64,000 bases of DNA from Thiobacillus sp. 65-1059 (GCA_001897675.1 MKUE01000105.1:2567-66566); one strand, 5' to 3'; counted from the stretch's first letter, positions 2,088 through 19,358 are shown. The notes: a model not told the origin generated them from the sequence alone. Program-made: numbers and translations.

Positions 2088-2787
<700 letters not shown>

Positions 2788-2788
<1 letters not shown>

Positions 2789-3990: not shown

Positions 3991-4098
3991 GCGCAAGCGG
4001 GTCGACAGCGAAATACCGGAGGGATCCGGGTTTGCCATGATGCGCGAGTGAACGGCCGGTCTCGATTGGCCTAAGATGAAGCATCGCCCATTGGATAC

Positions 4099-6693
4099 AT
4101 GCCCGATCCCTTGAAAGATGCTCTCGCGAATCTCAAGGACGCGTTCTATCGGCGCCGGCATCTTTGGGCGGCCATTTTCAGCCTGTCGCTATTCTTGTCG
4201 GCACTGGGGATGCTGCATCGGGAACTGGCGGATATCCATCTCGCGGAAATACGCCTGGCCCTTGATCGGGTGCCCGTCAGCGGCTTGCTGCTGGCGGGGC
4301 TGGGCACGCTCGGCAGCTACCTCGCCCTGACCGGGTACGACATGCTGGCTCTGCGCCACCTGGGCCGCGCGTTGCCCTATCCGCGCGTGGCACTGAACGC
4401 CTTCATCGCCACGACGGTGGGACATAACCTGGGCATGGCCATGCTCTCCGCCGGAGCGGTGCGCTTGCGCCTTTACACGGCCGCAGGACTCGCGGCCACC
4501 GAGGTGGCGGGGCTGGTGGCCTTGATTGGACTGACCTTCGCTGTGGGCGTGACGTTTGCCGCCGGGCTGGCGCTGCTCCTTGAACCGGCGGAGAGCGGGC
4601 GGCTGCTGCACCTGTCCGCGGACGGCGCAGGCAGCATCGGCGCCCTGCTGCTTGCCCTGGTTGCCCTTTATCTGGGCTTCGGTCTATTGCGCCGCGCCCC
4701 CATCCGGCTGGGCAGCTGGCAGTGGCATCTGCCTGGCGCCGGCATCGCTCTGGGCCAACTGGTCCTGGCCGCGGCCGACCTGGGGTGCGCCGCCGCCGCC
4801 CTTTTCTGGCTTTTGCCCGCGCAAGCGGCGGTGTCGTTTCCCGCGTTTCTGGGCGTGTACGTTCTGGCGGTGGTGGCGGGCATCGTCAGCCATGTGCCGG
4901 CCGGGCTCGGGGTGTTTGAAACGGTGCTGCTGCTGGCCCTGCCGGCGGTGCCGCAGGAGGATTTGCTGGCAGCCATTCTGGCCTACCGTGCGATCTACTA
5001 TCTGGCCCCGCTGGCGGCGGCGGCGCTGCTGGTTGCCGGAAAGCTGGTGCAGTTGCGCCGTGCCGCGCTTGCCCAGGGGCTGGATTCGATGCGCCAGGTT
5101 TTCGGCTGGATGGCGCCGGTGACGGTCAGCAGCGCAACCTTCATCGCCGGGGCGCTGCTGCTGTTGTCCGGCAGCACGCCCGCACTCCCCGAGCGGCTGT
5201 CCCTGCTGCAGGACTTCGTGCCCCTGCCGCTGCTGGAGGTTTCGCATCTGCTGGGCAGCCTGGCCGGCCTGGGCCTCGTCATCCTGGCGCGGGCGCTGCA
5301 CCGCCGGGTCGACGCCGCCTACCACCTGGCCTTCTGGCTGCTGGCGCTCGGCGCGCTGGCCTCCCTGGTCAAGGGCCTGGATTACGAGGAGGCGCTACTT
5401 TCCATGCTGGTCCTGGGCATGCTCTGGCTGGGGCGTGACGCCTTCAATCGGCCCGCCTCCCTCTTTGCCCGGCGTTTCTCGCCGGGCTGGATGCTTTCGG
5501 TCGCACTGCTGCTGGCCGCCACCGTTTGGCTGGGGCTGTTCTCCTTCAAGCATGTCGATTATTCCCATGAGCTGTGGTGGCAGTTCGCCCTGCAAGGCGA
5601 TGCCCCGCGCTTCCTGCGCGCGTCCCTGCTGCTGGTCTTGGCGGGGGGCGGCCTGGCGCTGCTGCATCTGCTGCGGCCGGCGCCGCCCGAACCCGGCAGG
5701 CCGAGCGGACAGGATCTGGCACACGCTGCCCGCATCGTCGCCGCCGCCCCGCAGAGCGACGCCGCCCTTGCCCTGCTGGGCGACAAGCGCCTGCTGTTCA
5801 GCCCGGCCGGAGAGGCGTTCATCATGTATCAGGTGCGCGGCCAGAGCTGGATCGCCATGGGCGATCCGGTCGGGCCGGAGAGCGCGCGCGAAGCGCTGGT
5901 CTGGCGGTTCCGCGAGATGGCGGATCGCCACGGCGGACGCACCGTTTTCTACCAGGTCGATGCGGAAAACCTGCCCCTCTACCTGGATCTGGGCCTGACC
6001 GCCATGAAACTGGGCGAGGAAGGCATGGTTTCCCTCGCCGGATTCTCGCTGGAGGGAGCGGCGCGCAAGGAACTGCGCCAGTCCCATCGACGCGCCCAGC
6101 GGGACGGGCTCAGCTTCGAGGTCGTGCCGCCTGCGGCGGTGCCGGCGCTGCTGGACGAACTCCGGCGGGTTTCTGATAGCTGGCTGGCAGAGAAGCACAC
6201 CCGGGAAAAGGGCTTCGCCCTGGGCTATTTCCAGCCCGCTTACCTCGCCCACTTTCCCTGTGCGCTGGTGCGCCTGGACGGGCACGTCGTGGCCTTCGCC
6301 AATGTCCTGGCATCCGCCGGGCGGCAGGAACTGTCCATCGATCTCATGCGTCGTCTGCCCGCGGCGCCCAAGGGCGTCATGGACTATCTTTTTATCGAAC
6401 TCATGCTGTGGGGCAGCCGCGAGGGCTACGCCCATTTCAATCTGGGCATGGCTCCCCTGTCCGGCCTGGAGTCCCATCCCCTTGCCCCGTTGTGGCACCG
6501 CCTGGGGACATTGATTTTCCGGCAGGGGGAGTACTTCTACAACTTCGAGGGCTTGCGTGCCTACAAGGAAAAATTCTCGCCGGCCTGGCGCCCGAAGTAC
6601 CTCGCCGTGCCCGGCGGGCTGGCTTTGCCGACCGTCCTGCTGGACGTGGCGGCCCTGATTGCCGGAGGCATCAGGGGCGTGTTTAGCCGTTGA
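4099..6693 (+). CDS. mprF: Aminoacyl-phosphatidylglycerol synthase/flippase, MprF family (Lys- vs Ala-PG specificity not decidable from sequence)
   Basis: 864 aa. The N-terminal ~530 aa are strongly hydrophobic and multi-TM. The cytoplasmic C-terminal synthase domain carries FYQVDAENLPLYLDLGL, EKGFALGYF, FNLGMAPLSG and YNFEGLRAYKEKFSP. Confidence 0.9.
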   Translation: MPDPLKDALANLKDAFYRRRHLWAAIFSLSLFLSALGMLHRELADIHLAEIRLALDRVPVSGLLLAGLGTLGSYLALTGYDMLALRHLGRALPYPRVALNAFIATTVGHNLGMAMLSAGAVRLRLYTAAGLAATEVAGLVALIGLTFAVGVTFAAGLALLLEPAESGRLLHLSADGAGSIGALLLALVALYLGFGLLRRAPIRLGSWQWHLPGAGIALGQLVLAAADLGCAAAALFWLLPAQAAVSFPAFLGVYVLAVVAGIVSHVPAGLGVFETVLLLALPAVPQEDLLAAILAYRAIYYLAPLAAAALLVAGKLVQLRRAALAQGLDSMRQVFGWMAPVTVSSATFIAGALLLLSGSTPALPERLSLLQDFVPLPLLEVSHLLGSLAGLGLVILARALHRRVDAAYHLAFWLLALGALASLVKGLDYEEALLSMLVLGMLWLGRDAFNRPASLFARRFSPGWMLSVALLLAATVWLGLFSFKHVDYSHELWWQFALQGDAPRFLRASLLLVLAGGGLALLHLLRPAPPEPGRPSGQDLAHAARIVAAAPQSDAALALLGDKRLLFSPAGEAFIMYQVRGQSWIAMGDPVGPESAREALVWRFREMADRHGGRTVFYQVDAENLPLYLDLGLTAMKLGEEGMVSLAGFSLEGAARKELRQSHRRAQRDGLSFEVVPPAAVPALLDELRRVSDSWLAEKHTREKGFALGYFQPAYLAHFPCALVRLDGHVVAFANVLASAGRQELSIDLMRRLPAAPKGVMDYLFIELMLWGSREGYAHFNLGMAPLSGLESHPLAPLWHRLGTLIFRQGEYFYNFEGLRAYKEKFSPAWRPKYLAVPGGLALPTVLLDVAALIAGGIRGVFSR

Positions 6694-6704
6694 CGGGAGC
6701 TTGA

Positions 6705-8108
6705 ATGAACAGCCAGCCGCAGCGCCTGTTTCGCCGGATCATCCGCATCGCATTCCTGCTGCTCTTGTCCGGTTCCGGCTGGGCGGCGGGCAACATCGCC
6801 GAATCCACCCTGGGGTTCGGCCGCTTTGGCAAAGTCTCGCTCTATTCCCCGTCCGCGGAGCCGGATCGGGTCGTGCTGTTCATCTCCGGCGACGGCGGCT
6901 GGAATCTGGGCGTGATCGACATGGCCCGTGAATTGGCCGGACTCGATGCCCTGGTCGTGGGAATCGATATCCGACATTACCTGGCCTCCGTGGAAGCGGG
7001 CCAGCAGAAGTGCGCCTACCCGGCGGGGGATTTCGAGGCCCTGGGCCAGTTCGTGCAGAAAAAACTGGGCTATCGGCAGTTCCACCGCCCCGTGCTGGTG
7101 GGCTATTCCTCGGGCGCCACCCTGGCCTATGCCACCCTGGCCCAGGCTCCGGCCGGCACCTTCTCGGGCGCGGTCAGCCTGGGGTTCTGCCCCGATCTGA
7201 TGCTGCGCAAGCCCATGTGCAAGGGAGCCGGCCTCAGCTACAAAATCGATCCTGGACTGGGGCAGGTGTTCGATCCGGTTGCCCGTCTGGCCGACCCGTG
7301 GGTGGTTCTCCACGGCGACCAGGATCAGGTCTGCGCGCCGGCAGCAACGGCGGCTTACGTGGCGAAAGTGGCGGGCGGCAGCCTGGTCCGCCTCCCCAGG
7401 GTGGGTCACGGCTTCTCCGTGCCGCGCAACTGGATGCCCCAGTTCAAGGCCGCGTTCGCGGCCTTCTCGCAGTCAGCGCCCGGTGTGCCTCTCCGGGCGG
7501 CGAAAGGGGTGGGTTATTTGCCGCTGGTGGAAGTCGCCGCCGGCCGGCCCGGCGACACGCTGGCGATTCTGCTCACAGGAGATGGCGGCTGGGCTGGCCT
7601 GGACCGGGGGCTCGCGGCCGCCCTGGCGGAAAGGGGCGTGGCGGTGATCGGCTGGGACTCCCTGCGGTATTACTGGAAGCCGCGCACGCCGGATGCGGCG
7701 GCCAGGGATCTGGCCAGCGTGATGGAATATTACCGGACCGCGCTGAAGCGGCAGCGGATTATCCTGATCGGCTATTCCTTCGGGGCGGAAGTGCTGCCGT
7801 TTCTGGCAAGCCGCTTGCCGGCGGAACTGAAGGCGCACATCGAGAAAATTGTCCTGCTGGGGCCGGGCCCGCGGGCGCATTTTGAATTCAAGCTCGCCGA
7901 CTGGCTGGGCGGTGCCGAGGGCGGCCAGGAGGTGTCCAGTGAAATTGCCCGGCTTGGCGGCCTGTCCGTGGAGTGCGTGCATGGCGCGGAAGAGCGCGAC
8001 AGCCTGTGCAGCAAGCTCGATACCGGGATGGCCAGAAGCGTGACGCTGCCAGGCGGCCACCATTTTGATGGCGACTATGCGGGCTTGGCCAGGCTGATCC
8101 GAGAGTGA
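6705..8108 (+). CDS. acvB: AcvB/VirJ-family secreted aminoacyl-PG hydrolase-like protein (two alpha/beta-hydrolase-like repeats)
   Basis: 467 aa with a signal peptide (RIAFLLLLSGSGWA). Two repeats each carry SGDGGW/TGDGGW and a GYSxGA nucleophile elbow (GYSSGA, GYSFGA). It lies 11 nt downstream of mprF, as in lpiA-acvB type operons. Confidence 0.8.
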   Translation: MNSQPQRLFRRIIRIAFLLLLSGSGWAAGNIAESTLGFGRFGKVSLYSPSAEPDRVVLFISGDGGWNLGVIDMARELAGLDALVVGIDIRHYLASVEAGQQKCAYPAGDFEALGQFVQKKLGYRQFHRPVLVGYSSGATLAYATLAQAPAGTFSGAVSLGFCPDLMLRKPMCKGAGLSYKIDPGLGQVFDPVARLADPWVVLHGDQDQVCAPAATAAYVAKVAGGSLVRLPRVGHGFSVPRNWMPQFKAAFAAFSQSAPGVPLRAAKGVGYLPLVEVAAGRPGDTLAILLTGDGGWAGLDRGLAAALAERGVAVIGWDSLRYYWKPRTPDAAARDLASVMEYYRTALKRQRIILIGYSFGAEVLPFLASRLPAELKAHIEKIVLLGPGPRAHFEFKLADWLGGAEGGQEVSSEIARLGGLSVECVHGAEERDSLCSKLDTGMARSVTLPGGHHFDGDYAGLARLIRE

Positions 8109-8167: not shown

Positions 8168-9163
8168 TCAGAACTCGGCCTTGATTTCCCGGTTCAGCAG
8201 GGCATCGACTGCCTGCGCGGCAGGCAGGCCGTCGAACAGCATCCGGCAGACGGCGCGGGTGATCGGCATGTCGACGCCCCGTTCGGTTGCGAGCGCGTCG
8301 GCCTCGCGTGCGGTGGTGACGCCTTCGGCGACGTGGCCGAGTTCGGCGAGGATGGCGGCGAGTGGCTGGCCGCGCGCGAGCCGCAGGCCGACCTGGCGGT
8401 TGCGCGAGAGGTCGCCGGTGGTGGTGAGGATGAGGTCGCCGAGGCCGGACAGCCCCATGAAGGTTTCGAAGCGGCCGCCGAGTCCGACGCCGAGCCGGGT
8501 CATTTCGGCCAGCCCGCGGGTGATGAGGGCGGCGCGGGCGTTGTGGCCGAGCTGCAGGCCGTCGCAGATGCCGGCGGCAATGGCCATGACGTTCTTCAGT
8601 GCGCCGCCGATTTCGACGCCGACGACGTCGTCATGCGCGTAGAGCCGCAGGCGCGGGCCGGACAGTATTGCCGACAGGCGTTGCGCCAGCGCGGTGTCGT
8701 CGGCAGCCAGCGTCAGCGCGGTGGGGTAGCCTTGCGCGACTTCCTGGGCGAAGCTGGGGCCGGACAGCACGGCGGTTTGCGTGTGCCCGGGCAGCAGTTC
8801 GGCGATGAGCTGGTGCGGTAGCTTGCGGCTGCCGGGCTCGAATCCCTTGCATATCCAGACCAGCGGCGGCAGTCCGGGCTGCCGGGCGAGCGCGGCCAGC
8901 GTGGGGCGCAGGCCGCCGCTGGGGACGGCGACGACGAGGAGTTCGGCGTCCCCGACAACGGCGCTGAAATCCGGGCTGAAGCGCAGCGTGTCCGGCAGCG
9001 GACAGCCCGGCAGATAGCGCGCATTGACGCGGCTCGCCTGCATGGCATCGAGCTCGGCCGCGTTGCGTCCCCACAGGGTGACGCGGTGGTGCGGCGCCCA
9101 GCTGGCCGCCAGCGCGGTGCCCCAGGCGCCCGCGCCGAGTACCGACAGTCTCATCGTCCCCAT
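8168..9163 (-). CDS. gpsA: NAD(P)H-dependent glycerol-3-phosphate dehydrogenase
   Basis: 331 aa with an N-terminal Rossmann motif (VLGAGAWGTALA), a conserved GpsA core (GPSFAQEVA, GALKNVMAIAAG) and a C-terminal MPITRAV motif. An alternative start at ATG 9154 would make an ATGA overlap with the upstream stop. Confidence 0.93.
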   Translation of the reverse strand: MGTMRLSVLGAGAWGTALAASWAPHHRVTLWGRNAAELDAMQASRVNARYLPGCPLPDTLRFSPDFSAVVGDAELLVVAVPSGGLRPTLAALARQPGLPPLVWICKGFEPGSRKLPHQLIAELLPGHTQTAVLSGPSFAQEVAQGYPTALTLAADDTALAQRLSAILSGPRLRLYAHDDVVGVEIGGALKNVMAIAAGICDGLQLGHNARAALITRGLAEMTRLGVGLGGRFETFMGLSGLGDLILTTTGDLSRNRQVGLRLARGQPLAAILAELGHVAEGVTTAREADALATERGVDMPITRAVCRMLFDGLPAAQAVDALLNREIKAEF

Positions 9164-9609
9164 GCCTCGTGCACCGGCAGCCAGCCGCTGAGGCCGCCGG
9201 CGTGTTTCACCGGCAGCCAGCCGTAGCTGTCCATGTCGCCGGTGACTTCGAGCAGGACGCCGCGCGCGGCACGGAACACGATCTCGGCGTCGGCGCGCGG
9301 CTGTTGCCGGACGATGCTGGATTCAGCCTTGACCATGACGGTTCTTGCGCCGCCGAGGGCGGCTTTCTCGATCCACGCCAGCCGGCCGCTGTGGTCGCGC
9401 ACCTTGACCCAGGCCTCGGTGTCGACGATGACTTCAAGCGGCAGGCCGCTGCCGGCGACGGCGACTTTGCCGGCAGCGGCCGAAGGCGCGTCGTACAGCA
9501 GGGCGGCGCGCCCGGTGCTGCGGTATTCAAGCGCAGCGGCGGGGTGCGCCAGGGCCAGCAGCAGGCCGGCCGCGGGCAGCCAGCCGGGGGGGCGCAGTCG
9601 CAATTTCAA
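9151..9609 (-). CDS. Secreted SH3 domain-containing protein
   Basis: The ORF-track 229-aa version overlaps secB, so I trimmed it to TTG 9609, which overlaps the secB stop (CATTGA); TTG 9603 is an alternative. Signal-like N-terminus KLRLRPPGWLPAAGLLLALAHPAAA followed by two SH3b-like halves (...LPLEVIVDTEAWVKVRD..., ...LLEVTGDMDSYGWLPVKH...). No clear SD, so the start is uncertain. Confidence 0.6.
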   Translation of the reverse strand: MKLRLRPPGWLPAAGLLLALAHPAAALEYRSTGRAALLYDAPSAAAGKVAVAGSGLPLEVIVDTEAWVKVRDHSGRLAWIEKAALGGARTVMVKAESSIVRQQPRADAEIVFRAARGVLLEVTGDMDSYGWLPVKHAGGLSGWLPVHEAWGR

Positions 9610-10064
9610 TGCGTCTGCGCGGGGGCAGCCTGTTGCTGCTGCAGCTGCTGTTGCTGCAGGTACAGCGTCTCGAAGTTGACCGGGTTCAGCAGCAGCGGCG
9701 GGAAGCCGGCGCGGATCACCACGTCGGACACGGTCTCGCGCAGATAGGGGAAGACGATGTTGGGGCAGCCGATGCCGAGCACCATCGGCAGCTGGTCCTG
9801 CGGCACGTTCTGGATGCGGAAGATGCCGCCCTGGCAGCATTCGACCAGGAACATGGTCTTGTCGCCGATCTTGGCGGTGACGGTGACGGTGATGCTGGTG
9901 TGGTACAGGTCCTGGTCCAGCGCATGGCTTTCGGTCGACATGTTGACGTCGATCTGCGGCGCTTCGCGTTCCAGGTAGATGGCGGGGGCGTTGGGCACCT
10001 CCACCGACAGATCCTTGACGAAGAGTTTTTCGATATTGAATACGGGTTGTTGTTCGTCGGCCAT
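9606..10064 (-). CDS. secB: Protein-export chaperone SecB (with Q-rich C-terminal tail)
   Basis: 152 aa. MADEQQPVFNIEKLFVKDLSVEVPNAP...NIVFPYLRETVSDVVIRAGFPPLLLNPVNFE is collinear with SecB. The tail LQQQQLQQQQAAPAQTH is unusual. Confidence 0.95.
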   Translation of the reverse strand: MADEQQPVFNIEKLFVKDLSVEVPNAPAIYLEREAPQIDVNMSTESHALDQDLYHTSITVTVTAKIGDKTMFLVECCQGGIFRIQNVPQDQLPMVLGIGCPNIVFPYLRETVSDVVIRAGFPPLLLNPVNFETLYLQQQQLQQQQAAPAQTH

Positions 10065-10080: not shown

Positions 10081-10104
10081 AGAAAACCGGAGCCTGCGCT
10101 CCGG
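10081..10104 (-). terminator. Rho-independent terminator after trxC
   Basis: On the minus strand: CCGGAGC-GCAG-GCTCCGG followed by TTTTCT, 24 nt past the trxC stop. Confidence 0.6.
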
Positions 10105-10128: not shown

Positions 10129-10557
10129 TTATTGAATGCCTTGCGACGCCAGCCAGCGCTTCAATGCGAACGCATCCATCGCCCCCGAGGTGCGCGCCGC
10201 CTCGGCGCCGTTCCTGAACAGGATCAGGCTGGGAATGCCGCGGATGTGGTGACGCATCGACACCTGCGGGTGGGCCTCGGTGTCGACCTTGGCGAAGCGC
10301 ACGCGCGTGCCCATCTCGGCCGCGACTTGCTGGAATACCGGCGCCATCATCTTGCAGGGGCCGCACCAGTCGGCCCAGAAATCGACCAATACCGGCAGGC
10401 CGGCACGGGCGACGAAGCGGTCGAAGCTGTCGGCGCTCAGGTCGACCGGCTGGCCGGGCAGCAGCGGCGAGCCGCACTTGCCACATTTCGGTGCGTCGGC
10501 CAGGCGGTCGTCCGGCACGCGGTTGACGGCGAGGCAGTGGGGGCAGGCGAGTTCCAT
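10129..10557 (-). CDS. trxC: Thioredoxin 2 (zinc-finger N-terminal extension)
   Basis: 142 aa with an N-terminal CPHC...CGKC zinc-finger pair followed by a thioredoxin fold with WCGPC. Confidence 0.9.
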   Translation of the reverse strand: MELACPHCLAVNRVPDDRLADAPKCGKCGSPLLPGQPVDLSADSFDRFVARAGLPVLVDFWADWCGPCKMMAPVFQQVAAEMGTRVRFAKVDTEAHPQVSMRHHIRGIPSLILFRNGAEAARTSGAMDAFALKRWLASQGIQ

Positions 10558-10564
10558 CGGGGTT

Positions 10565-10593
10565 CCTTGAAGCGAAGGGTCTTCGCTTCAAGG
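10565..10593 (-). promoter_or_regulatory. Perfect 13-bp stem / 3-nt loop hairpin in the grxC-trxC spacer, overlapping the trxC Shine-Dalgarno
   Basis: CCTTGAAGCGAAG (10565-10577) and CTTCGCTTCAAGG (10581-10593) are exact reverse complements. On the minus strand the 3' arm ends ...CAAGG, followed by AACCCCG and the ATG. There is no U-tract. Confidence 0.6.
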
Positions 10594-10626
10594 TGGGGGC
10601 GTGCGCCGGAAACTCAAGCGTGCGCG

Positions 10627-10890
10627 TCAGGCACGGGCGAGCAGGGGCACCAGTTCGCCCGCCGCGTCCAGCGCTGAGGTGTCGTCGAAGCCGCCGACGT
10701 GGGTGTCGCCGATGAACACCTGCGGCACGGTGCGGCGGCCGCCGGAGCGTGCGATCATTTCGTCCTGCCTGGCCGGGTCGAGGTCGATGCGGATCTTCTC
10801 GATTTCAGTCACGCCGCGGCTTTTGAGCAGGCGCTCGGCGGCCACGCAATAGGGACAGACGGCGGTGCAATACATCACGACTTTAGCCAT
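10627..10890 (-). CDS. grxC: Glutaredoxin 3
   Basis: 87 aa with the CPYC active site (MYCTAVCPYCVAAERLL) and TVPQVFIGDTHVGGFDD. Confidence 0.93.
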   Translation of the reverse strand: MAKVVMYCTAVCPYCVAAERLLKSRGVTEIEKIRIDLDPARQDEMIARSGGRRTVPQVFIGDTHVGGFDDTSALDAAGELVPLLARA

Positions 10891-10899
10891 GGGGGTTCC

Positions 10900-11316
10900 T
10901 TATTTCTTGGTGACGGGCAGGTTGGCGCGTTCCCACGCCATGATGCCGCCCGCCAGGTTATACACGGTTTCGAAGCCGGCTTTTTTCAGCATGCCGCAGG
11001 CGCGCGCCGAGCGCTGGCCGCTGCGGCAGGCGACCAGGATCGGCTTGCTCTTGAATTTGTCGAGTTCCTGCAGGCGGCCGGCCAGCTGGCCGAGCGGAAT
11101 GTGCCTGGCTTTCGGAATGTGGCCGGCTGCGTATTCCTTGTCCTCGCGCACGTCGAGCACCAGCGCGTCGTCGTTGTACAGCCGGGTGGCTTTCAACGTG
11201 TCGGCCTGCTCCACGCCGGACAGCTTGCCGCCGATGAAGGACCAGGCCAGCATGGCGCCCGACACCAGCGCCAGCGCCACCAGCATCCAGTTGTCCTGCA
11301 GGAATTGCATATCCAT
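10900..11316 (-). CDS. Membrane-anchored rhodanese-domain sulfurtransferase
   Basis: 138 aa with an N-terminal TM (WMLVALALVSGAMLAWSFI), a rhodanese fold and a catalytic loop CRSGQRS. GGAGG SD 6 nt upstream of the ATG. Confidence 0.88.
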   Translation of the reverse strand: MDMQFLQDNWMLVALALVSGAMLAWSFIGGKLSGVEQADTLKATRLYNDDALVLDVREDKEYAAGHIPKARHIPLGQLAGRLQELDKFKSKPILVACRSGQRSARACGMLKKAGFETVYNLAGGIMAWERANLPVTKK

Positions 11317-11328
11317 GAATGCCTCCGC

Positions 11329-11547
11329 TTACAGGCCGCAGCCCGGTTTGACCCCGGCTTTTTTCAGCATGATGTCCAGCGGGCAGAAACGGGTGAGGCC
11401 GGACTGGAACAGGTTGAAGCCGACGAAGGCGGTGAACCACAGCCACGACAGCCGGGTCATGTCGACGCTGCCGGAAAAATGCGCCAGCGCCAGCGACAGC
11501 ATGATGAAAAATCCGGCAATGATGCGGACCATACGTTCAACGGTCAT
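11329..11547 (-). CDS. DUF2892 (YgaP C-terminal-like) small membrane protein
   Basis: 72 aa. The pattern ERMVRIIAGFFIML...GFNLFQSGLTRFCPL matches the YgaP-type TM hairpin. An AGGAG SD sits inside the 3' end of the RND gene and the start overlaps the RND stop by 11 nt. Confidence 0.8.
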   Translation of the reverse strand: MTVERMVRIIAGFFIMLSLALAHFSGSVDMTRLSWLWFTAFVGFNLFQSGLTRFCPLDIMLKKAGVKPGCGL

Positions 11548-14500
11548 GAGATAACTCCTGGTTCAAAGAAGAGAATTTACGGTAATTGGCGGCGTAATAC
11601 AGCACCGGGATCACCACCAGCGTGAGCAGGGTGGAGACGAAAATACCGAAAATCAGGGACACCGCGAGGCCGCTGAAAATCGGGTCGTCGAGGATGAAGA
11701 AGGCGCCCATCATGGCCGCCAGCCCGGTCAGCACGATCGGCTTGGCGCGGGTGGCGCCGGCCTGGATGACCGCTTCCTGGAAGTCCATTCCGCCGCGCAC
11801 CTGCTCGTTGACGAAATCGACCAGCAGGATGGAGTTGCGCACGATGATGCCGGCCAGCGCGATCATCCCGATCATCGAGGTGGCGGTGAACTGCGCGCCG
11901 AGCAGGGCGTGGCCGGGCATCACGCCGATGATGGTGAGCGGGATCGGCGCCATGATGACGAGCGGCGTCAGATAGCTCTTGAACTGCGCCACCACCAGGA
12001 TGTAGATCAGGATCAGCCCGACGGCATAGGCGATGCCCATGTCGCGGAAGGTTTCGTAGGTCACCTGCCATTCGCCGTCCCATTTCAGGCTGAATCCGGC
12101 GTAGGGATCGGCCGGCTGGCGGACGAAATACTCGGCCAGCGTGCCGCCCTGTTCCAGCGCCTTGTCCTTCAATTCCGCGCGCATGCCGAACAGGCCGTAC
12201 AGCGGCGAATCCAGCTTGCCGCCGGCGTCGCCGAAGACGAATACCACCGGCAGCAGATCCTTGTGGTAGATGGTCTTTTCGCGCGCGCTCGGCATCACTT
12301 CCACCAACTCGGACAACGGGATCAAATGGCCGCCGCTGCCGCGCACGCTCAGTTTCAGCAGTTCGTCGATGCCGCTCAGGCGCTCCGGCGGCAGCGTGAT
12401 GCGCACCGGAATCTCGTACTTGGCGCCGCTGCCGTGGATGGGGGTGACGTTCTCGCCCGCCAGCCCCATCCGCATCGCCGCGACGATATCCTTCTGCGCC
12501 ACGCCCGCCATCGCCGCCTTGTTCTGCATGACGCGCAGCACGAAGCGCTGGGCGTCGTCCTCCACCGTGTCGTCGATCGCCACGATGCCCTCGGACTGCT
12601 CGAATACCTTGCGCACCTGCTTGGCGACCTGGATCTGCGCGTCGTAATCGGGGCCGTAGATTTCGGCGACGATCGGCGACATCACCGGCGGGCCGGGCGG
12701 CACTTCGACCACCTTGACGTCGGCGCCGTGCTTTCTGGCGACCGCCTCGACCGCGGGGCGGATCGCCTGCGCGATCTCGTGGCTCTTGCGGTCGCGCGCG
12801 TGCTTGTCAACCAGGTTCACCTGCAGGTCGCCGACCTCGGGGCCGGAACGCAGGTAATACTGTCGCACCAGGCCGTTGAAATTGATCGGCGCCGCGGTGC
12901 CGGCGTAGGCCTGGTAGTCGGTGACTTCGGGCACCTGCGCGACGACCGTGCCCATTTCGCTCAACACCTGCGCGGTTTTCTCCAGCGGCGTGCCGACCGG
13001 CATGTCGACGATGATCTGGAATTCCGACTTGTTGTCGAACGGCAGCATTTTCAAAATCACCAGCTGCACCGCCGGCAGCGCGACCGACAGCAGGATGGCG
13101 AGGCCGATGCCCAGCCACAGCTTGCGGCGCGCGCCGCGGCCTTCGACGCCGCGCAGGAAGGGGGTCAGCCGGGTGCGGAACAGCCCGAGCAGCCTGGGTT
13201 CGCCGCCGTGGCCGGCGTGCGCGCCCTGCTTGATGAGCTTGAGCGCCAGCCAGGGGGTGACGACGAAAGCGATCGCCAGCGAGATCAGCATGCCGATCGA
13301 GGCGTTGATCGGGATCGGGCTCATGTACGGCCCCATCAGGCCGGAGACGAAGGCCATCGGCAAAAGCGCGGCGATGACGGTGAGGGTGGCGAGGATGGTC
13401 GGGCCGCCGACTTCGTCGACCGCGCGCGGAATGATCGCTGTGAGGCCGTCGTGGTCGAGCCCCATGCGGCGGTGGATGTTTTCCACCACCACGATGGCGT
13501 CGTCGACCAGGATGCCGATCGAGAAGATCAGCGCGAACAGCGACACCCGGTTGAGCGTGAAGCCCCAGGCCCACGAGGCGAACAGCGTGGCGGCCAGCGT
13601 CAACAGCACCGCTGCGCCGACGATCAGCGCCTCGCGGCGGCCGAGCGCGAACAGCACCAGCAGCACCACCGAGGCGGTGGCGAAGATCAGCTTCTGGATC
13701 AGCTTCTTGGCCTTGTCGTCGGCGGTGGCGCCGTAGTTGCGGGTGACGCTGGCTTCGATGCCTTCGGGCAGCACGCTGTTGCGCAGGGCGTCGACGCGGG
13801 CAATCACCTTTTCCGCGACGTCGACCGCGTTTTCGCCCGGCTTTTTGGAAATGGCGAGCGTCACCGCCGGATAGGTCTGGCCCTTGTCGGCCTGGTGCGT
13901 GCCGCCTGCGCCGGGGCCGTGCCAGACGTAGCGGGTGGGCTGGTCGGGGCCGGCAACGACGCTGGCAATGTCGCTCATGTAGACCGGGCGGCCTTGCGCG
14001 ACGCCGATCACCAGCTGCCTGACGTCCTCGGCGCCGGTGAGGAAGGTGCCGGTCTGCACCAGGATTTCCTGGTTGTTGGATACCAGCGTGCCGGACGGCT
14101 GCGCCGCGTTGGCGACCTGCAGGGCGTCGCGGATGTCCTGCGGCGAGATGCCGAATGCCGCCATGCGGTCGGGATCCATCATCACCCGCACCGCGCGGCC
14201 GGGGCCGCCGACGGTGACGACCTCGCGGGTGCCGGCGATGCGCTTCAGCTCGATTTCCGCGGCGTGCGCCGCCTGCTCCAGTTCGTAGGCGCCGCGCGTC
14301 TCGTCGCGCGTCCACAGGGTGACGGTGACGATCGGCACGTCGTCGATGCCGAGTGGCTTGATGATGGGTTCGCCGACCCCGAGTTCGGGCGAGACCCAGT
14401 CGCGGTTGGCCTGGATGGCGTCGTACAGCCGCACCAGCGCCTGGGTGCGGTCCTGGCCGACGAGGTACTGCACGGTCAGCACCGCCATCCCGGGCTTGGA

Positions 14501-14758
14501 CACGGAATAAATGTGTTCGATGCCGGCGATCTGCGACAGCACCTGCTCGGCGGGGGTGGCGACCAGCGCCTCCACGTCCTTCGCCGAGGCGCCGGGGAAG
14601 GGGATGAACACGTTGGCCATGGTCACGTTGATCTGCGGCTCTTCCTCGCGCGGCGTGACCAGGATGGCGAACAGCCCCAGCAGGGCCGCGATCAGCGCGA
14701 TCAGCGGGGTGAGCTGGGATGTGAGGAAAAAACGGGCGACGCGTCCGGAGAGTCCCAT
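11537..14758 (-). CDS. RND efflux transporter permease (AcrB/AcrD/AcrF superfamily)
   Basis: About 1073 aa with 12-TM RND topology and two large periplasmic loops. N-terminus MGLSGRVARFFLTSQLTPLIALIAALLG...REEEPQI. I prefer ATG 14758 (AGGA SD 6 nt upstream) over the track's GTG 14764. Confidence 0.92.
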   Translation of the reverse strand: MGLSGRVARFFLTSQLTPLIALIAALLGLFAILVTPREEEPQINVTMANVFIPFPGASAKDVEALVATPAEQVLSQIAGIEHIYSVSKPGMAVLTVQYLVGQDRTQALVRLYDAIQANRDWVSPELGVGEPIIKPLGIDDVPIVTVTLWTRDETRGAYELEQAAHAAEIELKRIAGTREVVTVGGPGRAVRVMMDPDRMAAFGISPQDIRDALQVANAAQPSGTLVSNNQEILVQTGTFLTGAEDVRQLVIGVAQGRPVYMSDIASVVAGPDQPTRYVWHGPGAGGTHQADKGQTYPAVTLAISKKPGENAVDVAEKVIARVDALRNSVLPEGIEASVTRNYGATADDKAKKLIQKLIFATASVVLLVLFALGRREALIVGAAVLLTLAATLFASWAWGFTLNRVSLFALIFSIGILVDDAIVVVENIHRRMGLDHDGLTAIIPRAVDEVGGPTILATLTVIAALLPMAFVSGLMGPYMSPIPINASIGMLISLAIAFVVTPWLALKLIKQGAHAGHGGEPRLLGLFRTRLTPFLRGVEGRGARRKLWLGIGLAILLSVALPAVQLVILKMLPFDNKSEFQIIVDMPVGTPLEKTAQVLSEMGTVVAQVPEVTDYQAYAGTAAPINFNGLVRQYYLRSGPEVGDLQVNLVDKHARDRKSHEIAQAIRPAVEAVARKHGADVKVVEVPPGPPVMSPIVAEIYGPDYDAQIQVAKQVRKVFEQSEGIVAIDDTVEDDAQRFVLRVMQNKAAMAGVAQKDIVAAMRMGLAGENVTPIHGSGAKYEIPVRITLPPERLSGIDELLKLSVRGSGGHLIPLSELVEVMPSAREKTIYHKDLLPVVFVFGDAGGKLDSPLYGLFGMRAELKDKALEQGGTLAEYFVRQPADPYAGFSLKWDGEWQVTYETFRDMGIAYAVGLILIYILVVAQFKSYLTPLVIMAPIPLTIIGVMPGHALLGAQFTATSMIGMIALAGIIVRNSILLVDFVNEQVRGGMDFQEAVIQAGATRAKPIVLTGLAAMMGAFFILDDPIFSGLAVSLIFGIFVSTLLTLVVIPVLYYAANYRKFSSLNQELSHDR

Positions 14759-14770
14759 GCGCACTCCTGC

Positions 14771-15811
14771 TTATTTGGCGGACGGGTTGGCGGCGCTTTT
14801 GGCGTAAATCCCCGCCTTCACCGGTTCGAGCGCAATGATGTCGCCCGGGTTGAGGCCGGCCAGCACCTCCACCTGCCCGCGCGCCTGGGGCGTGCCCAGG
14901 CGAACCTGCCGCAGGCTCACCTTGTCCCGGTTCACCACGTAGACCGCGGTGATTTCGGAGCGGCGCACCACGGCGCTGGCCGGGATGCTGAGCTTGCGCG
15001 CGCTGGCCACCGAAAAATGCGCCCGCGCGAACATGCCAGGGATGACGCCTTCCAGGCCGGCCGGCAGGTCGATGCGCACCTTGACGGTGTGGGTGGCGGC
15101 ATCGGCCGACGGCAGCACGGTGACGCCGGCGGCGTCGATCCATTTGTCGAGCGAAGGAATTTCAATCGCGACACGCGGCGCGGCCTTCACCTCGGCCAGC
15201 TTGTACTGCGGAATGTTGGCGACCACCCGCATGTCCTTGGGGTCGAAACCGGTCATCAAGGGCTTTCCGGGCGTCACGGTTTCCCCCACCTCGACGTGGC
15301 GGGCGGCGACCACCCCGGAAAATGGCGCAGTAATCACGGTGTAGCCGCTTACTGCTGCGGATTGCCCTGCCCCGGCGCGGGCAGCGCGGGCGGCCGCTTC
15401 GGCCGCGCGGAATTCGGCGGTGGCGCGGTCGAGTGCGGCCTGGCTGATGAATTTCTGCTGGAACAGCTGCTGCTGGCGCTCGTAATTGGCGCGTGCGTTG
15501 GCCAGCGTGGCGGCGGCCTGCGCCACTTGCGCCTGGCTGCCCGCCACGGCGGAGGACAACTCCTGCGCCGACAGCCGCACGATCACCGAGCCCGCCTTGA
15601 CGTAATCGCCGGCATCGAAATTGACCGCTGCCACGCGTCCCGACACCTGGGCGGCGACGGTCGATTGCTTGACGGCTTCAACCGTGGCTTCGGTGGAGTA
15701 GCCGCTGTCGGTCATCTGGTATTGCACCGGGGCAACGGCGAAAGGCAGGGCGGCCCAGGCGGCGGGAGAGGCAAGGATGACGCAGGCAAGTAGACGAGCG
15801 GGGTTCAGCAC
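14771..15811 (-). CDS. RND efflux periplasmic adaptor subunit
   Basis: Trimmed to GTG 15811 (GGAG SD about 8 nt upstream). This gives the signal/anchor LNPARLLACVILASPAAWA, a coiled coil (AVAGSQAQVAQAAATLANARANYERQQQLF) and barrel domains. The track's longer 407-aa N-terminus has no support. Confidence 0.85.
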   Translation of the reverse strand: MLNPARLLACVILASPAAWAALPFAVAPVQYQMTDSGYSTEATVEAVKQSTVAAQVSGRVAAVNFDAGDYVKAGSVIVRLSAQELSSAVAGSQAQVAQAAATLANARANYERQQQLFQQKFISQAALDRATAEFRAAEAAARAARAGAGQSAAVSGYTVITAPFSGVVAARHVEVGETVTPGKPLMTGFDPKDMRVVANIPQYKLAEVKAAPRVAIEIPSLDKWIDAAGVTVLPSADAATHTVKVRIDLPAGLEGVIPGMFARAHFSVASARKLSIPASAVVRRSEITAVYVVNRDKVSLRQVRLGTPQARGQVEVLAGLNPGDIIALEPVKAGIYAKSAANPSAK

Positions 15812-15838
15812 AGATGCGACTCCGTGAAACGGTCCATT

Positions 15839-15867
15839 AGAATAATCTAATTTACCATTCGATTCAA
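15839..15867 (-). promoter_or_regulatory. Candidate sigma70 promoter of the RND operon with an overlapping inverted-repeat operator
   Basis: Minus strand: TTGAAT (15867-15862), 17-nt spacer, TATTCT (15844-15839). The inverted repeat ATTAGA-N4-TCTAAT (15836-15851) overlaps the -10 element. The segment is AT-rich in an otherwise GC-rich region. Confidence 0.5.
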
Positions 15868-15987
15868 TAATTTGGGCAATGTTTCCCGCCCGGGCGGTAG
15901 GATTGCGGCAGGTTTCAAGTATGCCCCACATGGGGGCGCCTATCCACCGCCGCCGCGCGCAGGACGGCGGATGCAATGCCGCACCAT

Positions 15988-16023
15988 AAAACAAAAGCCC
16001 GGCACGTCTGCGCGTGGCCGGGC
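15988..16023 (-). terminator. Rho-independent terminator after the ArsR-family gene
   Basis: Minus strand: GCCCGGCCAC...GTGCCGGGC stem (one bulge) followed by TTTTGTTTTA, about 20 nt past the regulator stop. Confidence 0.55.
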
Positions 16024-16043
16024 CCGGGATGTCGACTCGCTGG

Positions 16044-16373
16044 TTACTTGGTGAAACCGCAGAAAACGTCGCGCATCATCCCCAGAAGCTTCAGCGTGCG
16101 GGTGTCGCCGACGCGATAAAACACCCGGTTGGCGTCCTTGCGGGTGCGCAATACGCCCTTGTCGCGCAGGATGGCCAGGTGCTGCGAGATATTGCTTTGC
16201 GAGGTGCCGACGTGGTCGACGATGTCCTGCACGCTGACCTCCTTGTCGCCCAGGACGCAAAGGATTTTCAGACGCAGCGGATGCGACATGGCTTTCATCG
16301 CACGCGAAGCCTGTTCGATGTGCTCGTCCTTGTCCATGAGGTCCACTTCGTCCCAATCGGCTGCCATATTCAT
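16044..16373 (-). CDS. ArsR/SmtB-family transcriptional regulator, two-Cys SqrR/BigR/YgaV-like
   Basis: Trimmed to ATG 16373 (ATG 16367 is also possible). wHTH core SHPLRLKILCVLGDKEVSVQDIVDHVGTSQSNISQHLAILRDKGVL. It has only two Cys, C39 and C105, counted from the 16373 start. Confidence 0.85.
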   Translation of the reverse strand: MNMAADWDEVDLMDKDEHIEQASRAMKAMSHPLRLKILCVLGDKEVSVQDIVDHVGTSQSNISQHLAILRDKGVLRTRKDANRVFYRVGDTRTLKLLGMMRDVFCGFTK

Positions 16374-16536: not shown

Positions 16537-18078
16537 ATGAAGACCTCGCCGGTTCTCCTTCTCATCCTCGACGGTTTCGGTTGCCGCGCGGAGCGCGCGG
16601 ACAATGCGATCGCGCAAGCCAGCAAACCCAACTGGGACCGGCTCTGGAAGCATAACCCGCACACCCTGATCCACGCTTCCGAGTCCGAAGTGGGGCTGCC
16701 CAAGGGGCAAATGGGGAATTCCGAGGTGGGGCATCTCAACATCGGCGCGGGACGCGTGGTGTATCAGGAGTTCACCCGCATCGACCACGCCATCGAGTCC
16801 GGTTATTTCTACACCAACCCGGCGCTGCTGAATGCGGTGCATCGGGTGCGCGACCAGGACAAGACCCTGCATGTGCTGGGCCTGCTGTCGGACGGCGGCG
16901 TGCATAGCCACGAGTCGCACTTCCACGCCTTGCTGGAACTGGCGGCGCGCGAAGGACTGCGCAAGGTGTGCCTGCATGTGTTTCTGGATGGCCGCGACAC
17001 GCCGCCGAAAAGCGCCGAGACCTACCTGCGCCGCCTGATCGCAAAAACCGAACAGGCTGGCGTCGGCCACATCGCGTCGATGATCGGTCGCTACTATGCG
17101 ATGGACCGCGACCGCCGCTGGCAACGGGTCAAAGCTGCGTACGACTTGCTGACGCAGGGGCGTGCCGAGTTTCGCGCCGACGATCCGCTGGCCGGGCTGG
17201 AGGCCGCATACGCGCGCGGCGAGACCGATGAGTTCATCAAGGCCACCGCGATCCTGCCGCCGGATGCCGGGCCGGTGAAGATGGAAGACGGCGATGCGGT
17301 GATCTTTCTCAACTTCCGCTCCGACCGCGCGCGGCAGCTGTCGCGGCCGTTCATCGAATCCGATTTCAGCGAATTCGAACGCGAAGTCACGCCGCGCCTG
17401 GCCACCTACTGCACGTTGACCGGCTACAGCGACGACTTCGATGTGTCGGTCGCATTTCCGCCCGAGCGCATCAAGAATGGCCTGGGCGAATACGTCGCCA
17501 ACCTCGGCCTGCGCCAGCTGCGCATTGCCGAAACCGAAAAATATCCGCACGTCACTTTCTTTTTCAACGGCGGCGAGGAAATTTCCTTTCCCGGCGAAGA
17601 TCGCGTGCTGGTGCCGTCTCCCGACGTTGCAACCTACGACCTCAAACCCGAAATGAGCGCTTTCGAGGTCACCGACAAACTGCTCGCGGCAATCAACGGC
17701 AAACAGTACGACGTCATCGTCTGCAACTACGCCAACCCCGACATGGTGGGGCATACCGGTGATCTGCAGGCGGCGATCAAGGCCATCGAAACCGTCGACA
17801 CCTGCCTGGGCCGGGTGGTGGAGGCACAGCTGGCGCGCGGCGGCGAAGTGCTGGTGACGGCCGACCACGGCAACGCCGAGCTGATGCGCGACGCCGAAAC
17901 CGGGCAGGCGCATACCGCGCACACCATGAATCTGGTGCCGCTCATCTATATCGGGCGGCGCCGCGCCACGCTGGCCGAAACCGGCGCGCTCGAAGACGTC
18001 AGCCCGACCCTGCTGAAAATGATGGGATTGCCGCAACCCCCTGAAATGACGGGCGAAGCCCTGCTTCAATTTGAGTAA
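16537..18078 (+). CDS. gpmI: 2,3-bisphosphoglycerate-independent phosphoglycerate mutase
   Basis: 513 aa. LLILDGFG, MGNSEVGHLNIGAGR and ADHGNAE motifs; full-length collinearity with iPGM. Confidence 0.96.
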   Translation: MKTSPVLLLILDGFGCRAERADNAIAQASKPNWDRLWKHNPHTLIHASESEVGLPKGQMGNSEVGHLNIGAGRVVYQEFTRIDHAIESGYFYTNPALLNAVHRVRDQDKTLHVLGLLSDGGVHSHESHFHALLELAAREGLRKVCLHVFLDGRDTPPKSAETYLRRLIAKTEQAGVGHIASMIGRYYAMDRDRRWQRVKAAYDLLTQGRAEFRADDPLAGLEAAYARGETDEFIKATAILPPDAGPVKMEDGDAVIFLNFRSDRARQLSRPFIESDFSEFEREVTPRLATYCTLTGYSDDFDVSVAFPPERIKNGLGEYVANLGLRQLRIAETEKYPHVTFFFNGGEEISFPGEDRVLVPSPDVATYDLKPEMSAFEVTDKLLAAINGKQYDVIVCNYANPDMVGHTGDLQAAIKAIETVDTCLGRVVEAQLARGGEVLVTADHGNAELMRDAETGQAHTAHTMNLVPLIYIGRRRATLAETGALEDVSPTLLKMMGLPQPPEMTGEALLQFE

Positions 18079-18107: not shown

Positions 18108-19358
18108 GTGAACTTCAAACAATCCCTCGCCCTGCTGGCGCTGCTGGGACCGCTGGGCGCCGGCGCCAACCAGGTCGAACGCAAGCAATCCGAGCTCGAC
18201 GCGCTCAAGCAACGTCTGCACACCCTGCAGACGGAGTTTCGCAACACGCAGGCGCACCGCCAGGAAGCAGCCGACGAACTGCGCCAGTCCGAACGCGCCA
18301 TCAGCAGCGCGGTGCGTCAGTTGCGCGAACTGGACAGCGAGCGCCAGCGCACCGATAGCGATCTGCAGACGCTGACGCAGCAGGCCGAAGCCGTTGCGGC
18401 GCGCATTCGCCAGCAACAGGCCGGCCTGGGCCGGGCGCTCAAGGCCGCCTACCAGCGCGGACAGGGTGATGCGCTCAAACTCATGCTCAACGGCACGGAC
18501 CCCAACCAGACCGCGCGCGACCTGCGCTATCTGACGCATCTGTCGCGTGCCCAGCATGCCCAGATCGAAACGCTGCGCGCCGATCTCGCACAACTGGCGG
18601 CGCTGCAACAGCAGACCGCGCAAAAAACGACCGAGTTGACGCAGTTGCAGGCGGCGCGCGAGGCCGAGCAAAGGAAGCTGCTGGCCGACAGGCGCGCCCG
18701 CGAGGCGGTGCTGCAGAACCTGTCGGCTCAAATCCGGCAGCAGCGGCGTGAAATTTCCAACCTGAAACGCGACGAGCGCAGCCTGACCCAATTGGTGGAG
18801 CGTCTCGGCCGCCTGATGGCGCAGCAGGCGGCGCGCGAGGCGGCGCGCGCCCGTGCTGCGCAGCAGGCGCAGAAATCCCCGAAGGCCGAGACGGAGACGG
18901 TCGGCCAGCCGCGCCGCGCAGTGGCCGTGAATGCCGAAACGCCGGTGGCGTTTCGCTCGGAACGGCCTTTCTCCGGGCTGAAAGGCTTGCTGCGCCTGCC
19001 GGTTGCGGGGGAACTCATGAACCGCTTCGGGGCTCCGAGGGAGGAGGGCGGAGTGAGCTGGAAAGGCCTGTTCATCCGTGCCGCGCAAGGGTCGGCAGTA
19101 AAGGCGATCGCTGCCGGACAGGTGGTGTTTGCCGAGTGGCTGCGCGGCTTCGGCAACCTCATTATTGTCGACCATGGCGAGGGCTATATGAGCCTGTACA
19201 GCAATAATGAAAGTCTGTATAAGCAGGTTGGCGAACGGGTTCAGCCCGGCGACGCGATCGCCGCGGTCGGCAATAGCGGCGGCCAGCCCGACCCCGGCCT
19301 GTATTTCGAAATGCGGCATCAAAGCCGCCCTGTTAATCCCCTTCTATGGGTGAAGTGA
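18108..19358 (+). CDS. envC: Murein hydrolase activator EnvC-like (coiled coil + LytM/M23 domain)
   Basis: 416 aa with a GTG start, a signal peptide, a long Q/A/R-rich coiled coil and a C-terminal M23 domain (GNLIIVDHGEGYMSLY...LYFEMRH). The gpmI-envC-ctp order is conserved. Confidence 0.88.
   Translation: MNFKQSLALLALLGPLGAGANQVERKQSELDALKQRLHTLQTEFRNTQAHRQEAADELRQSERAISSAVRQLRELDSERQRTDSDLQTLTQQAEAVAARIRQQQAGLGRALKAAYQRGQGDALKLMLNGTDPNQTARDLRYLTHLSRAQHAQIETLRADLAQLAALQQQTAQKTTELTQLQAAREAEQRKLLADRRAREAVLQNLSAQIRQQRREISNLKRDERSLTQLVERLGRLMAQQAAREAARARAAQQAQKSPKAETETVGQPRRAVAVNAETPVAFRSERPFSGLKGLLRLPVAGELMNRFGAPREEGGVSWKGLFIRAAQGSAVKAIAAGQVVFAEWLRGFGNLIIVDHGEGYMSLYSNNESLYKQVGERVQPGDAIAAVGNSGGQPDPGLYFEMRHQSRPVNPLLWVK

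Follow-up and report, generated by a model that had tools for sequence, protein, structure and literature searches.

In the BigR/SqrR/HlyU subgroup of two-Cys ArsR regulators, persulfide donors convert the cysteine pair to a tetrasulfide bridge and DNA binding is lost (PMC12423496, PMC10054925); characterized members of the subgroup are reactive with persulfides and not with H2O2 (PMC10054925). Genes for two-Cys ArsR regulators, including that of R. capsulatus SqrR, often adjoin those of resistance-nodulation-division (RND) transporters, and a role in sulfur-compound transport has been suggested (PMC12423496). In Azospira suillum PS, genes for a hypothetical protein, an RND pump, a sulfide:quinone oxidoreductase (SQR), and an adaptor (Dsui_3440 to Dsui_3443) were flagged by Bar-seq fitness, and their expression, read as log2 values, rose from ∼1 to 4 to ∼9 to 10.5 with H2S; a separate DUF2892 gene (Dsui_0042) was induced ∼10-fold (PMC5358917). 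The disposal of sulfane sulfur (persulfides, polysulfides, and elemental sulfur) is poorly understood: sensors and oxidizing enzymes are known, but an exporter that spans the Gram-negative envelope is not known to have been characterized. Here, we describe a pump locus on the minus strand of a 64-kb stretch of DNA (the window) from Thiobacillus sp. 65-1059. Genes for an ArsR regulator, a periplasmic adaptor (membrane fusion protein, MFP), an RND permease, a small DUF2892 membrane protein, a rhodanese, glutaredoxin 3 (Grx3), and thioredoxin 2 (Trx2) are followed by those for SecB and GpsA. We favor, with moderate confidence, a three-layer composite in which a reactive-sulfur-derepressed RND efflux module has been inserted into a housekeeping locus. 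Genes were named by open reading frame (ORF) calls and Pfam/NCBIfam family scans; these, with direct reading of the sequence, bore out the gene order, every spacer, and the 11-nt RND/DUF2892 overlap of a preliminary description of the locus.

The association of the RND and DUF2892 genes was examined across genomes. Plain searches with the two proteins returned only Thiobacillus (at least 88% identity); wider reach came from a search of representative sequences and from scanning genomes with aligned members of the RND clade, which gave 80 loci from other species in Beta- and Gammaproteobacteria (RND identity, 52 to 71%). At each locus (numbered with the prefix L), ORFs were called, profiles were built from the window proteins (for DUF2892, from trimmed domains), and all neighboring genes were clustered; 55 of the 80 loci have both flanks and are termed complete. 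An adaptor gene was adjacent to the RND gene in 69 related loci (T. denitrificans included). DUF2892 was present in the module in 44 of the 80 loci and in 34 of the 55 complete ones. It lay downstream of the RND gene, with a gap of −4 to +80 nt, in 27 loci and directly 5' of the adaptor gene in 12; an ATGA overlap joined the RND and DUF2892 genes in 6 loci, and an SQR gene stood between them in 3. The DUF2892 residue C55, in an F-C-P motif after the second helix, was invariant in all 45 sequences, again with T. denitrificans included, and the mean pairwise identity of DUF2892 was 54%, versus 39% for the adaptor. Distance matrices of the RND protein correlated with those of DUF2892 (r = 0.68) and of the adaptor (r = 0.87). 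The survey counts, the invariant Cys, and the tracking of distances argue that RND-DUF2892 is a conserved module; the preliminary description had raised the possibility that the adjacency is confined to one genome, and this is not the case.

DUF2892 aligned to the C-terminal domain of YgaP, with C55 in register with the F-C motif of YgaP. An AlphaFold model showed two long helices at low confidence (mean predicted local distance difference test score, 63). Basic residues flank the helices (R5, R8 and R53, K62, K63, K67), and by the positive-inside rule the Cys is predicted to lie near the cytoplasmic face. The 1,073-residue RND protein contains no Cys, and the 72-residue DUF2892 protein contains two (C55, family invariant, and C70, frequent). 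We infer that DUF2892 is a subunit of the pump. The preliminary description had called an RND transporter coupled to a DUF2892 protein a system not yet described. In part this is too broad, as co-location of ArsR and RND genes was already reported in 2025 (PMC12423496) and an H2S-induced operon for MFP, SQR, RND, and a hypothetical protein has been published (PMC5358917). The RND-DUF2892 pairing itself was not found in the literature searched, where only five papers mention DUF2892, and what appears to be undescribed is the association of a distinct RND clade with a free-standing DUF2892 partner that is conserved and, more loosely, with Trx2. Free-standing DUF2892 proteins thereby gain a first functional context, as possible small partners of RND pumps.

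The RND protein was 100% identical to a Thiobacillus sp. 65-1059 protein and shared ∼90% identity with its T. denitrificans ATCC 25259 counterpart. Scores to pumps of solved structure were ∼170 to 217 bits (best, 217 bits), and representatives of its own clade, at ∼37 to 69% identity, scored 700 to 1,575 bits. The best NCBIfam subfamily score (RND_permease_2, 456 bits) was below the cutoff of 1,250. Being far from the solved pumps and below the curated cutoffs, the protein belongs to a divergent clade of its own. Multidrug-type NCBIfam models scored 456 and 356 bits and the CusA/CzcA model 236 bits, and transmembrane helix 4 (TM4) carries the motif VDDAIVVVEN, whose Asp residues are invariant or near-invariant in the clade alignment; the Asp-Asp pair and the higher multidrug-model scores argue against metal export. 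Judged by these motifs and scores, the pump is a hydrophobe/amphiphile-type RND of a clade widespread in Beta- and Gammaproteobacteria. The preliminary description had drawn attention to the lack of an outer-membrane factor (OMF) gene, and indeed none was found in the cluster; the sole OMF-like ORF in the window is partial. The E. coli acrAB operon likewise has no OMF gene, and seven related loci carry an OEP-family OMF gene directly downstream, so its absence in Thiobacillus is unremarkable. The pump is presumably tripartite.

Next, the regulator was compared with characterized ArsR proteins. It has exactly two Cys residues, C39 and C105, as first described, the former in helix α2 and the latter at the C-terminal end of α5. 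In a phmmer search of the PDB, BigR (3e−17), HlyU (5e−16), YgaV (2e−15), and SqrR (5e−13) ranked at the top. C39 and C105 were in register with the sensing Cys residues of BigR and HlyU without gaps and with those of YgaV across a single one-residue gap, and the MAFFT columns agreed; the correspondence that the preliminary description had drawn from spacing is thereby established for BigR, HlyU, and YgaV, with SqrR a significant match too. The regulator exceeded the NCBIfam HTH_metalloreg cutoff (86 versus 55 bits) and scored 76 bits against the BigR equivalog (NF040642), under the cutoff of 155; because of the latter, it was classed as a member of the two-Cys subgroup and not as a strict BigR orthologue. 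Metal and metalloid sites were absent on direct reading (no Cys in α3 and no His in α5, TRTLKLLGMMRDVFC). By homology, the regulator would use the tetrasulfide chemistry of the BigR/SqrR/HlyU subgroup.

An ArsR gene adjoined the adaptor gene in 23 loci, and in 14 of these (13 scanned loci and T. denitrificans) the regulator had the BigR-type Cys pair, so the pump co-occurs with this ArsR type in other genomes too. At L003 (T. denitrificans CP000116, 2468373-2470204), Tbd_2395 is listed as a two-Cys ArsR gene that is "alone" in Table S1 of the 2025 report (PMC12423496); adaptor-RND-DUF2892 begins 460 nt downstream of it on the same strand. The other nine ArsR loci, all in Burkholderiales, have a second subtype, with the first Cys missing and a C-x4-C motif near the C terminus. 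In this subtype (L015, L019, L024, L025, L030, L034, L041, L043, and L071), the gene is divergent from the adaptor gene, the first sensing-Cys position holds Asn or Ser, and the C-x4-C motif reads LCDLVCG; it may represent a different thiol switch. In T. thioparus (L084:1295-1780) and a Thiobacillus metagenome-assembled genome (MAG) (L086:1174-1659), a 161-residue Rrf2-family regulator takes the place of ArsR, and a multicopper oxidase gene is the neighbor where gpmI would be. As regulator types differ among lineages, the inducing signal may differ as well.

Upstream of the adaptor gene is a predicted promoter with a −35 element (TTGAAT, 15862-15867), a 17-nt spacer, and a −10 element (TATTCT, 15839-15844). 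The palindrome ATTAGA-TTAT-TCTAAT (15836-15851), present as stated in the preliminary description, overlaps the −10 element. In an alignment of upstream regions, the hexamers (or close variants) and the 17-nt spacer were conserved in six Thiobacillus-lineage loci. ATTAG-N6-CTAAT was found in three of the four ArsR-type loci of this lineage; in the Rrf2 loci, the palindrome is ATCAGT-TTAT-ACTGAT (L086) or a hybrid, ATTAGATTATACTGAT (T. thioparus, L084). The best evidence at hand for the palindrome as the operator is that its half-sites change when the regulator does. Taken alone, it is weak: ATTAGA-N4-TCTAAT is the sole match in the window at two or fewer mismatches, but 0.18 matches are expected by chance and at least one occurred in 15 of 100 shuffles. 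There was no second copy upstream of arsR in the window at the same tolerance, so autoregulation of arsR was unsupported and was set aside. The SqrR operator, ATTC-N8-GAAT, differs from this palindrome. The published HlyU operator shares only the TAAATTAG half-site with it (PMC10054925). The arrangement suggests that ArsR represses the pump promoter.

Several neighbors of the module in other genomes are linked to sulfur. A flavoprotein of 424 to 428 residues, encoded within the module or next to it in at least eight loci, is a type I SQR (536 bits to the A. ferrooxidans enzyme), and in several lineages its gene lies between those for the adaptor and RND or for RND and DUF2892. Sulfuritalea hydrogenivorans has adaptor-SQR-RND-DUF2892, with the RND protein 72% identical to that of the window and DUF2892 confirmed by Pfam. 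Given exactly this order and identity, the H2S-induced Azospira operon is very probably the same module; in an RND profile search of Rhodocyclaceae, Azospira was not among the best 120 matches listed. Seven other loci have a Trx2-type gene (zinc ribbon, WCGPC) next to the module: it follows DUF2892 directly in L023, L030, L041, and L078, follows RND directly in L049, and lies 1.2 to 1.6 kb downstream in two. Trx2 thus seems to accompany the module as a satellite, a possible explanation for the insertion of trxC in Thiobacillus. In other clades, rhodanese genes turned up close to the module (L029, L034, L072, and L079). With SQR, Trx2, rhodanese, and thiol-regulator neighbors, a link of the module to reactive sulfur is reasonable, and this part of the reactive-sulfur efflux module proposed in the preliminary description stands; its split-YgaP part does not (see below). 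Cytochrome bd genes, for an oxidase that is insensitive to sulfide, were seen directly beside the module in two loci (L047:10288-12566 and L079:12178-13746; cydA by eye). Recurrent but unrelated neighbor clusters (an MFS transporter, glutamine synthetase, a LysR regulator, an AI-2E transporter, and histidine kinases) were set aside.

The genes downstream of DUF2892 have a different history. In E. coli K-12, gpsA-secB-grxC-yibN and gpmM-envC lie on opposite strands, and the window is arranged alike. The window rhodanese has an N-terminal hydrophobic membrane anchor like that of YibN and matches E. coli YibN (37% identity, 8e−19) more closely than YgaP (31%, 3e−10). By similarity, anchor, and yibN-grxC-secB-gpsA synteny, it is a YibN orthologue and not a piece of YgaP; the split, order-swapped YgaP of the preliminary description was therefore abandoned, as the rhodanese belongs to an ancestral block divergent from gpmI-envC. 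The insertion in this lineage is that of arsR-MFP-RND-DUF2892, at the divergent point between gpmI and yibN. The loci of Gallionella, Sideroxydans, and a related MAG likewise have gpmI divergent from ArsR-MFP-RND-DUF2892, which is followed by rhodanese-(GrxC)-SecB-SH3-GpsA without trxC. The gallionellacean-type orthologues in the same positions are 61% (gpmI) and 51% (rhodanese) identical to those of the window. The preliminary description also spoke of an added Trx2; trxC lies between grxC and secB in Thiobacillus and is missing from the Gallionella and Sideroxydans loci. The protein has a zinc ribbon (two CxxC motifs) and WCGPC (PF21352, 2.7e−14; Cys residues 5, 8, 25, 28, 65, and 68).

Spacing at the junctions also varied by lineage. 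MFP-RND-DUF2892 is retained in five other Thiobacillus-lineage loci, and rhodanese-GrxC-TrxC-SecB follows in the four with long enough contigs. At the RND/DUF2892 junction, the extremes in this lineage are an overlap of 11 nt and a gap of 19 nt; the window has the overlap (ATGACCGTTGA), with CAGGAG upstream. DUF2892 and the rhodanese gene are separated by an ORF of ∼600 residues in Gallionella-type L007 and L010 and by an intergenic gap of ∼190 nt, with only a short 76-residue ORF called, in Sideroxydans L065, so the tight spacing in the window (12 nt) is specific to Thiobacillus. The remaining spacers are 12 nt (MFP/RND, given an RND start at ATG 14758 as in the NCBI 1,073-residue protein), 9 nt (rhodanese/grxC), and 69 nt (grxC/trxC). 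The features of the locus are collected in Table 1.

Table 1. Features of the pump locus and its flanks in the 64-kb window
Feature	Position	Strand	Evidence or remark
ArsR-family regulator, BigR/SqrR/HlyU/YgaV two-Cys type, 109 aa	16044-16373	-	Pfam HTH_5, 5e-13
Terminator-like hairpin and U tract past arsR	~15988-16025	-	G+C-rich stem of ~12 bp, then UUUUGUUUU
Predicted pump-operon promoter with overlapping palindrome	15836-15867	-	Sequence reading, conserved hexamers
Periplasmic adaptor (MFP), 346 aa, GTG start	14771-15811	-	TIGR01730, 205 bits vs cutoff 95; Pfam HlyD_D23
RND permease, full-length, 12 TM helices, 1073 aa	11537-14758	-	ACR_tran, 498 bits, residues 12-1058
DUF2892/YgaP-like two-helix membrane protein, 72 aa	11329-11547	-	PF11127, 9e-14
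YibN-type membrane-anchored rhodanese, 138 aa, active site CRSGQR	10900-11316	-	YibN identity and synteny
Glutaredoxin 3, 87 aa	10627-10890	-	TIGR02181, 109 bits vs cutoff 90
Perfect 13-bp hairpin upstream of trxC	10565-10593	-	Fold -29.8 kcal/mol, z = -5.5
Thioredoxin 2, 142 aa	10129-10557	-	NF008229 TrxC equivalog, 156 bits vs cutoff 125
Intrinsic-terminator-like hairpin past trxC, CCGGAGC-GCAG-GCUCCGG + UUUUCUU	10087-10104	-	z = -2.6
SecB	9606-10064	-	ORF and family scan
SH3-domain protein (SH3_4, SH3_3)	within ORF 9151-9840	-	Between secB and gpsA
GpsA	8168-9163	-	ORF and family scan
gpmI	16537-18078	divergent from the pump module	ORF and synteny
EnvC-like gene	18108-19358	with gpmI, divergent from the pump module	ORF and synteny

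The adaptor gene has GGAG 8 nt 5' of its GTG start, its signal peptide ends in AWA on sequence reading, and the T. denitrificans adaptor is likewise 346 residues long. The hairpin after arsR has the shape of a terminator, but its energy z-score is just −0.8 in G+C-rich sequence, and the call therefore rests on shape and not on statistics. Of the terminator-like sites on the minus strand, the one after trxC, which the preliminary description singled out, is the strongest; weaker 5-bp matches exist at 10619-10635, 11482-11495, and 13063-13079. In the hairpin upstream of trxC, the ribosome-binding site (AAGGA, 8 nt 5' of the ATG) falls within the 3' arm; the same hairpin is present in T. thioparus (L084:7190-7218) and not in T. 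denitrificans, L085, or L086, and it may control trxC translation. The SH3-domain gene is conserved in Thiobacillus and Gallionellaceae and is not in the E. coli block; its ORF overlaps secB, and the 5' end is probably overextended. On the plus strand, a separate envelope cluster (10-8108) encodes the partial OMF (10-795), an adaptor (792-2087), a MacB-type permease (2788-3990), an MprF-like lysyl-phosphatidylglycerol synthase (4099-6693), and a VirJ/AcvB-like hydrolase (6705-8108).

In the favored composite, the first layer would be the ancient yibN(rhodanese)-grxC-secB-SH3-gpsA block, divergent from gpmI-envC as in E. coli. The second would be arsR and MFP-RND-DUF2892, inserted between gpmI and yibN in a lineage that includes Thiobacillus and Gallionellaceae, and the third, confined to Thiobacillus, a Trx2 gene placed between grxC and secB. 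A reduced ArsR dimer on ATTAG-N6-CTAAT, over the −10 element, would block the pump promoter; persulfides or polysulfides, by homology with BigR, SqrR, and HlyU, would bridge C39 and C105, and the repressor would leave the DNA. One tightly coupled transcript would then give MFP, RND, and DUF2892 and might read through into yibN-grxC-trxC. An outer-membrane channel encoded elsewhere would serve the pump, and DUF2892 would be a small accessory membrane subunit with its Cys near the cytoplasmic face. The pump would clear sulfane-sulfur compounds (polysulfides, S8, and organic polysulfanes from SQR and other sulfur-oxidizing enzymes) from the periplasm and inner membrane; alternatively, its cargo might be other hydrophobic products of sulfide stress.

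Several observations weigh against this composite. T. thioparus has an Rrf2 regulator, and the nine Burkholderiales loci have the different ArsR subtype. The palindrome is degenerate or not conserved in T. denitrificans and is missing in other clades, save one probably chance match in L022. A terminator-like hairpin lies between arsR and the genes of the pump, so that ArsR control of the latter is argued from adjacency and the operator alone. Deletion of the whole Azospira operon left the rate of H2S oxidation unchanged (PMC5358917), and orthology of that operon is drawn from gene order only. No fusion of RND to DUF2892 or rhodanese domains was seen in eight long RND representatives scanned, and about one-third of the complete loci have neither a sulfur-linked neighbor nor DUF2892.

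A more ambitious form of the composite, which we put forward only as a tentative and rather unlikely proposal, is that MFP-RND-DUF2892 is the missing Gram-negative exporter of zero-valent sulfur. Polysulfide or S8, made at the periplasmic face by type I SQR and other sulfur-oxidizing enzymes, would be carried across the outer membrane, with DUF2892 as a Cys-dependent accessory subunit tying the pump either to the persulfide state of the cytoplasm or to a sulfur relay via rhodanese and Trx2. The locus itself matters in that it belongs to a widespread and strongly conserved pump family whose genes recurrently accompany those for persulfide-type sensors, SQR, Trx2, and rhodanese, and the question of export can be tested directly in culturable hosts (T. 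denitrificans, Azospira, Sulfuritalea, and Aromatoleum).

Among the alternatives, the one that fares best, although improbable in our view, is a general pump for hydrophobic compounds or electrophile stress, with no particular part in sulfur export, whose thiol-based regulators would sense oxidants, quinones, or other electrophiles and whose SQR and Trx2 neighbors would reflect general redox stress. The variety of regulators (BigR-type ArsR, C-x4-C ArsR, and Rrf2), the multidrug-type proton-relay motif, and the many hosts that are ordinary heterotrophs are all in keeping with it, as is the Aromatoleum module, which adjoins DsbB, a flavodoxin-like quinone reductase, and pirin and has no SQR. 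General stress does not readily account for type I SQR embedded in the module in several lineages or for the strong response to H2S of an operon with the same organization (PMC5358917), and characterized ArsR proteins of the subgroup, as noted, respond to persulfides and not to H2O2.

Somewhat more doubtful is a single reactive-sulfur operon running from the adaptor to trxC, with the pump between a persulfide sensor and a split YgaP whose halves would form a membrane sulfurtransferase. DUF2892 and rhodanese genes that are 12 nt apart, and adjacent in five other Thiobacillus-lineage loci, invite such a view, and no strong terminator precedes the one after trxC. DUF2892 also aligns to the YgaP membrane domain with its Cys conserved, and rhodaneses recur by the module in the four loci named above. 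Against this, the rhodanese is a YibN orthologue in an ancestral block common to E. coli, and DUF2892 accompanies the pump in 34 of the 55 complete loci, whereas rhodanese does so in 6. Moreover, in 12 loci DUF2892 stands before the adaptor, far from any rhodanese, and the ∼600-residue ORF (L007 and L010) or ∼190-nt gap (L065) parts the two genes in the Gallionellaceae. Efflux of metals or metal sulfides, which the Azospira authors proposed for the H2S-induced RND genes (PMC5358917), was rejected on motif and score grounds as very unlikely: ArsR-family regulators often control metal efflux and the adaptor is weakly similar to CzcB/CusB-type adaptors, but the regulator has a persulfide-type Cys pair and no metal-binding motifs, and the RND protein favors multidrug-type over CusA/CzcA models (456 versus 236 bits), has the Asp-Asp pair, and contains no Cys.

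The locus resembles several known systems in part. With BigR, SqrR, HlyU, and YgaV, the regulator shares the winged-helix fold family, two Cys residues 66 positions apart, the absence of a metal site, and a palindrome over the −10 element of a neighboring promoter, and SqrR and several relatives are also encoded beside RND genes. It is just 36% identical to YgaV (BLASTP), and its putative target is the pump operon, whereas those of the characterized regulators are blh/pdo, sqr, or toxin genes.

The pump recalls AcrAB-TolC with AcrZ, YajC-AcrB, and MmpS-MmpL in that a very small membrane protein is genetically tied to an RND protein, and it recalls AcrAB in having an adaptor-RND operon without an outer-membrane gene and a TM4 Asp-Asp proton relay. 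AcrZ is an unrelated single-helix protein, whereas DUF2892 has two helices and an invariant Cys and is encoded within the pump operon. The Azospira and Sulfuritalea operons share the adaptor/RND/small-protein module (Azospira by gene order alone). They have SQR between adaptor and RND and no adjacent ArsR gene, whereas the Thiobacillus locus has ArsR, and no SQR was found within the 64-kb window.

The E. coli ygaV-ygaP pair is similar in that a two-Cys ArsR gene is followed by DUF2892 and rhodanese functions, and the DUF2892 Cys is conserved. E. coli YgaP joins rhodanese and DUF2892, in that order, in a single chain; in the window, two separate genes lie in the reverse order, DUF2892 is free-standing and tied to RND, and the rhodanese is of the YibN type. 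With the E. coli yibN block, the locus shares a membrane-anchored rhodanese and the order and orientation of rhodanese, Grx3, SecB, GpsA, GpmI, and EnvC. It departs from that block in that the window rhodanese keeps its catalytic Cys (CRSGQR) and that Thiobacillus has an SH3 gene between secB and gpsA, Trx2 between grxC and secB, and the pump module at the divergent point.

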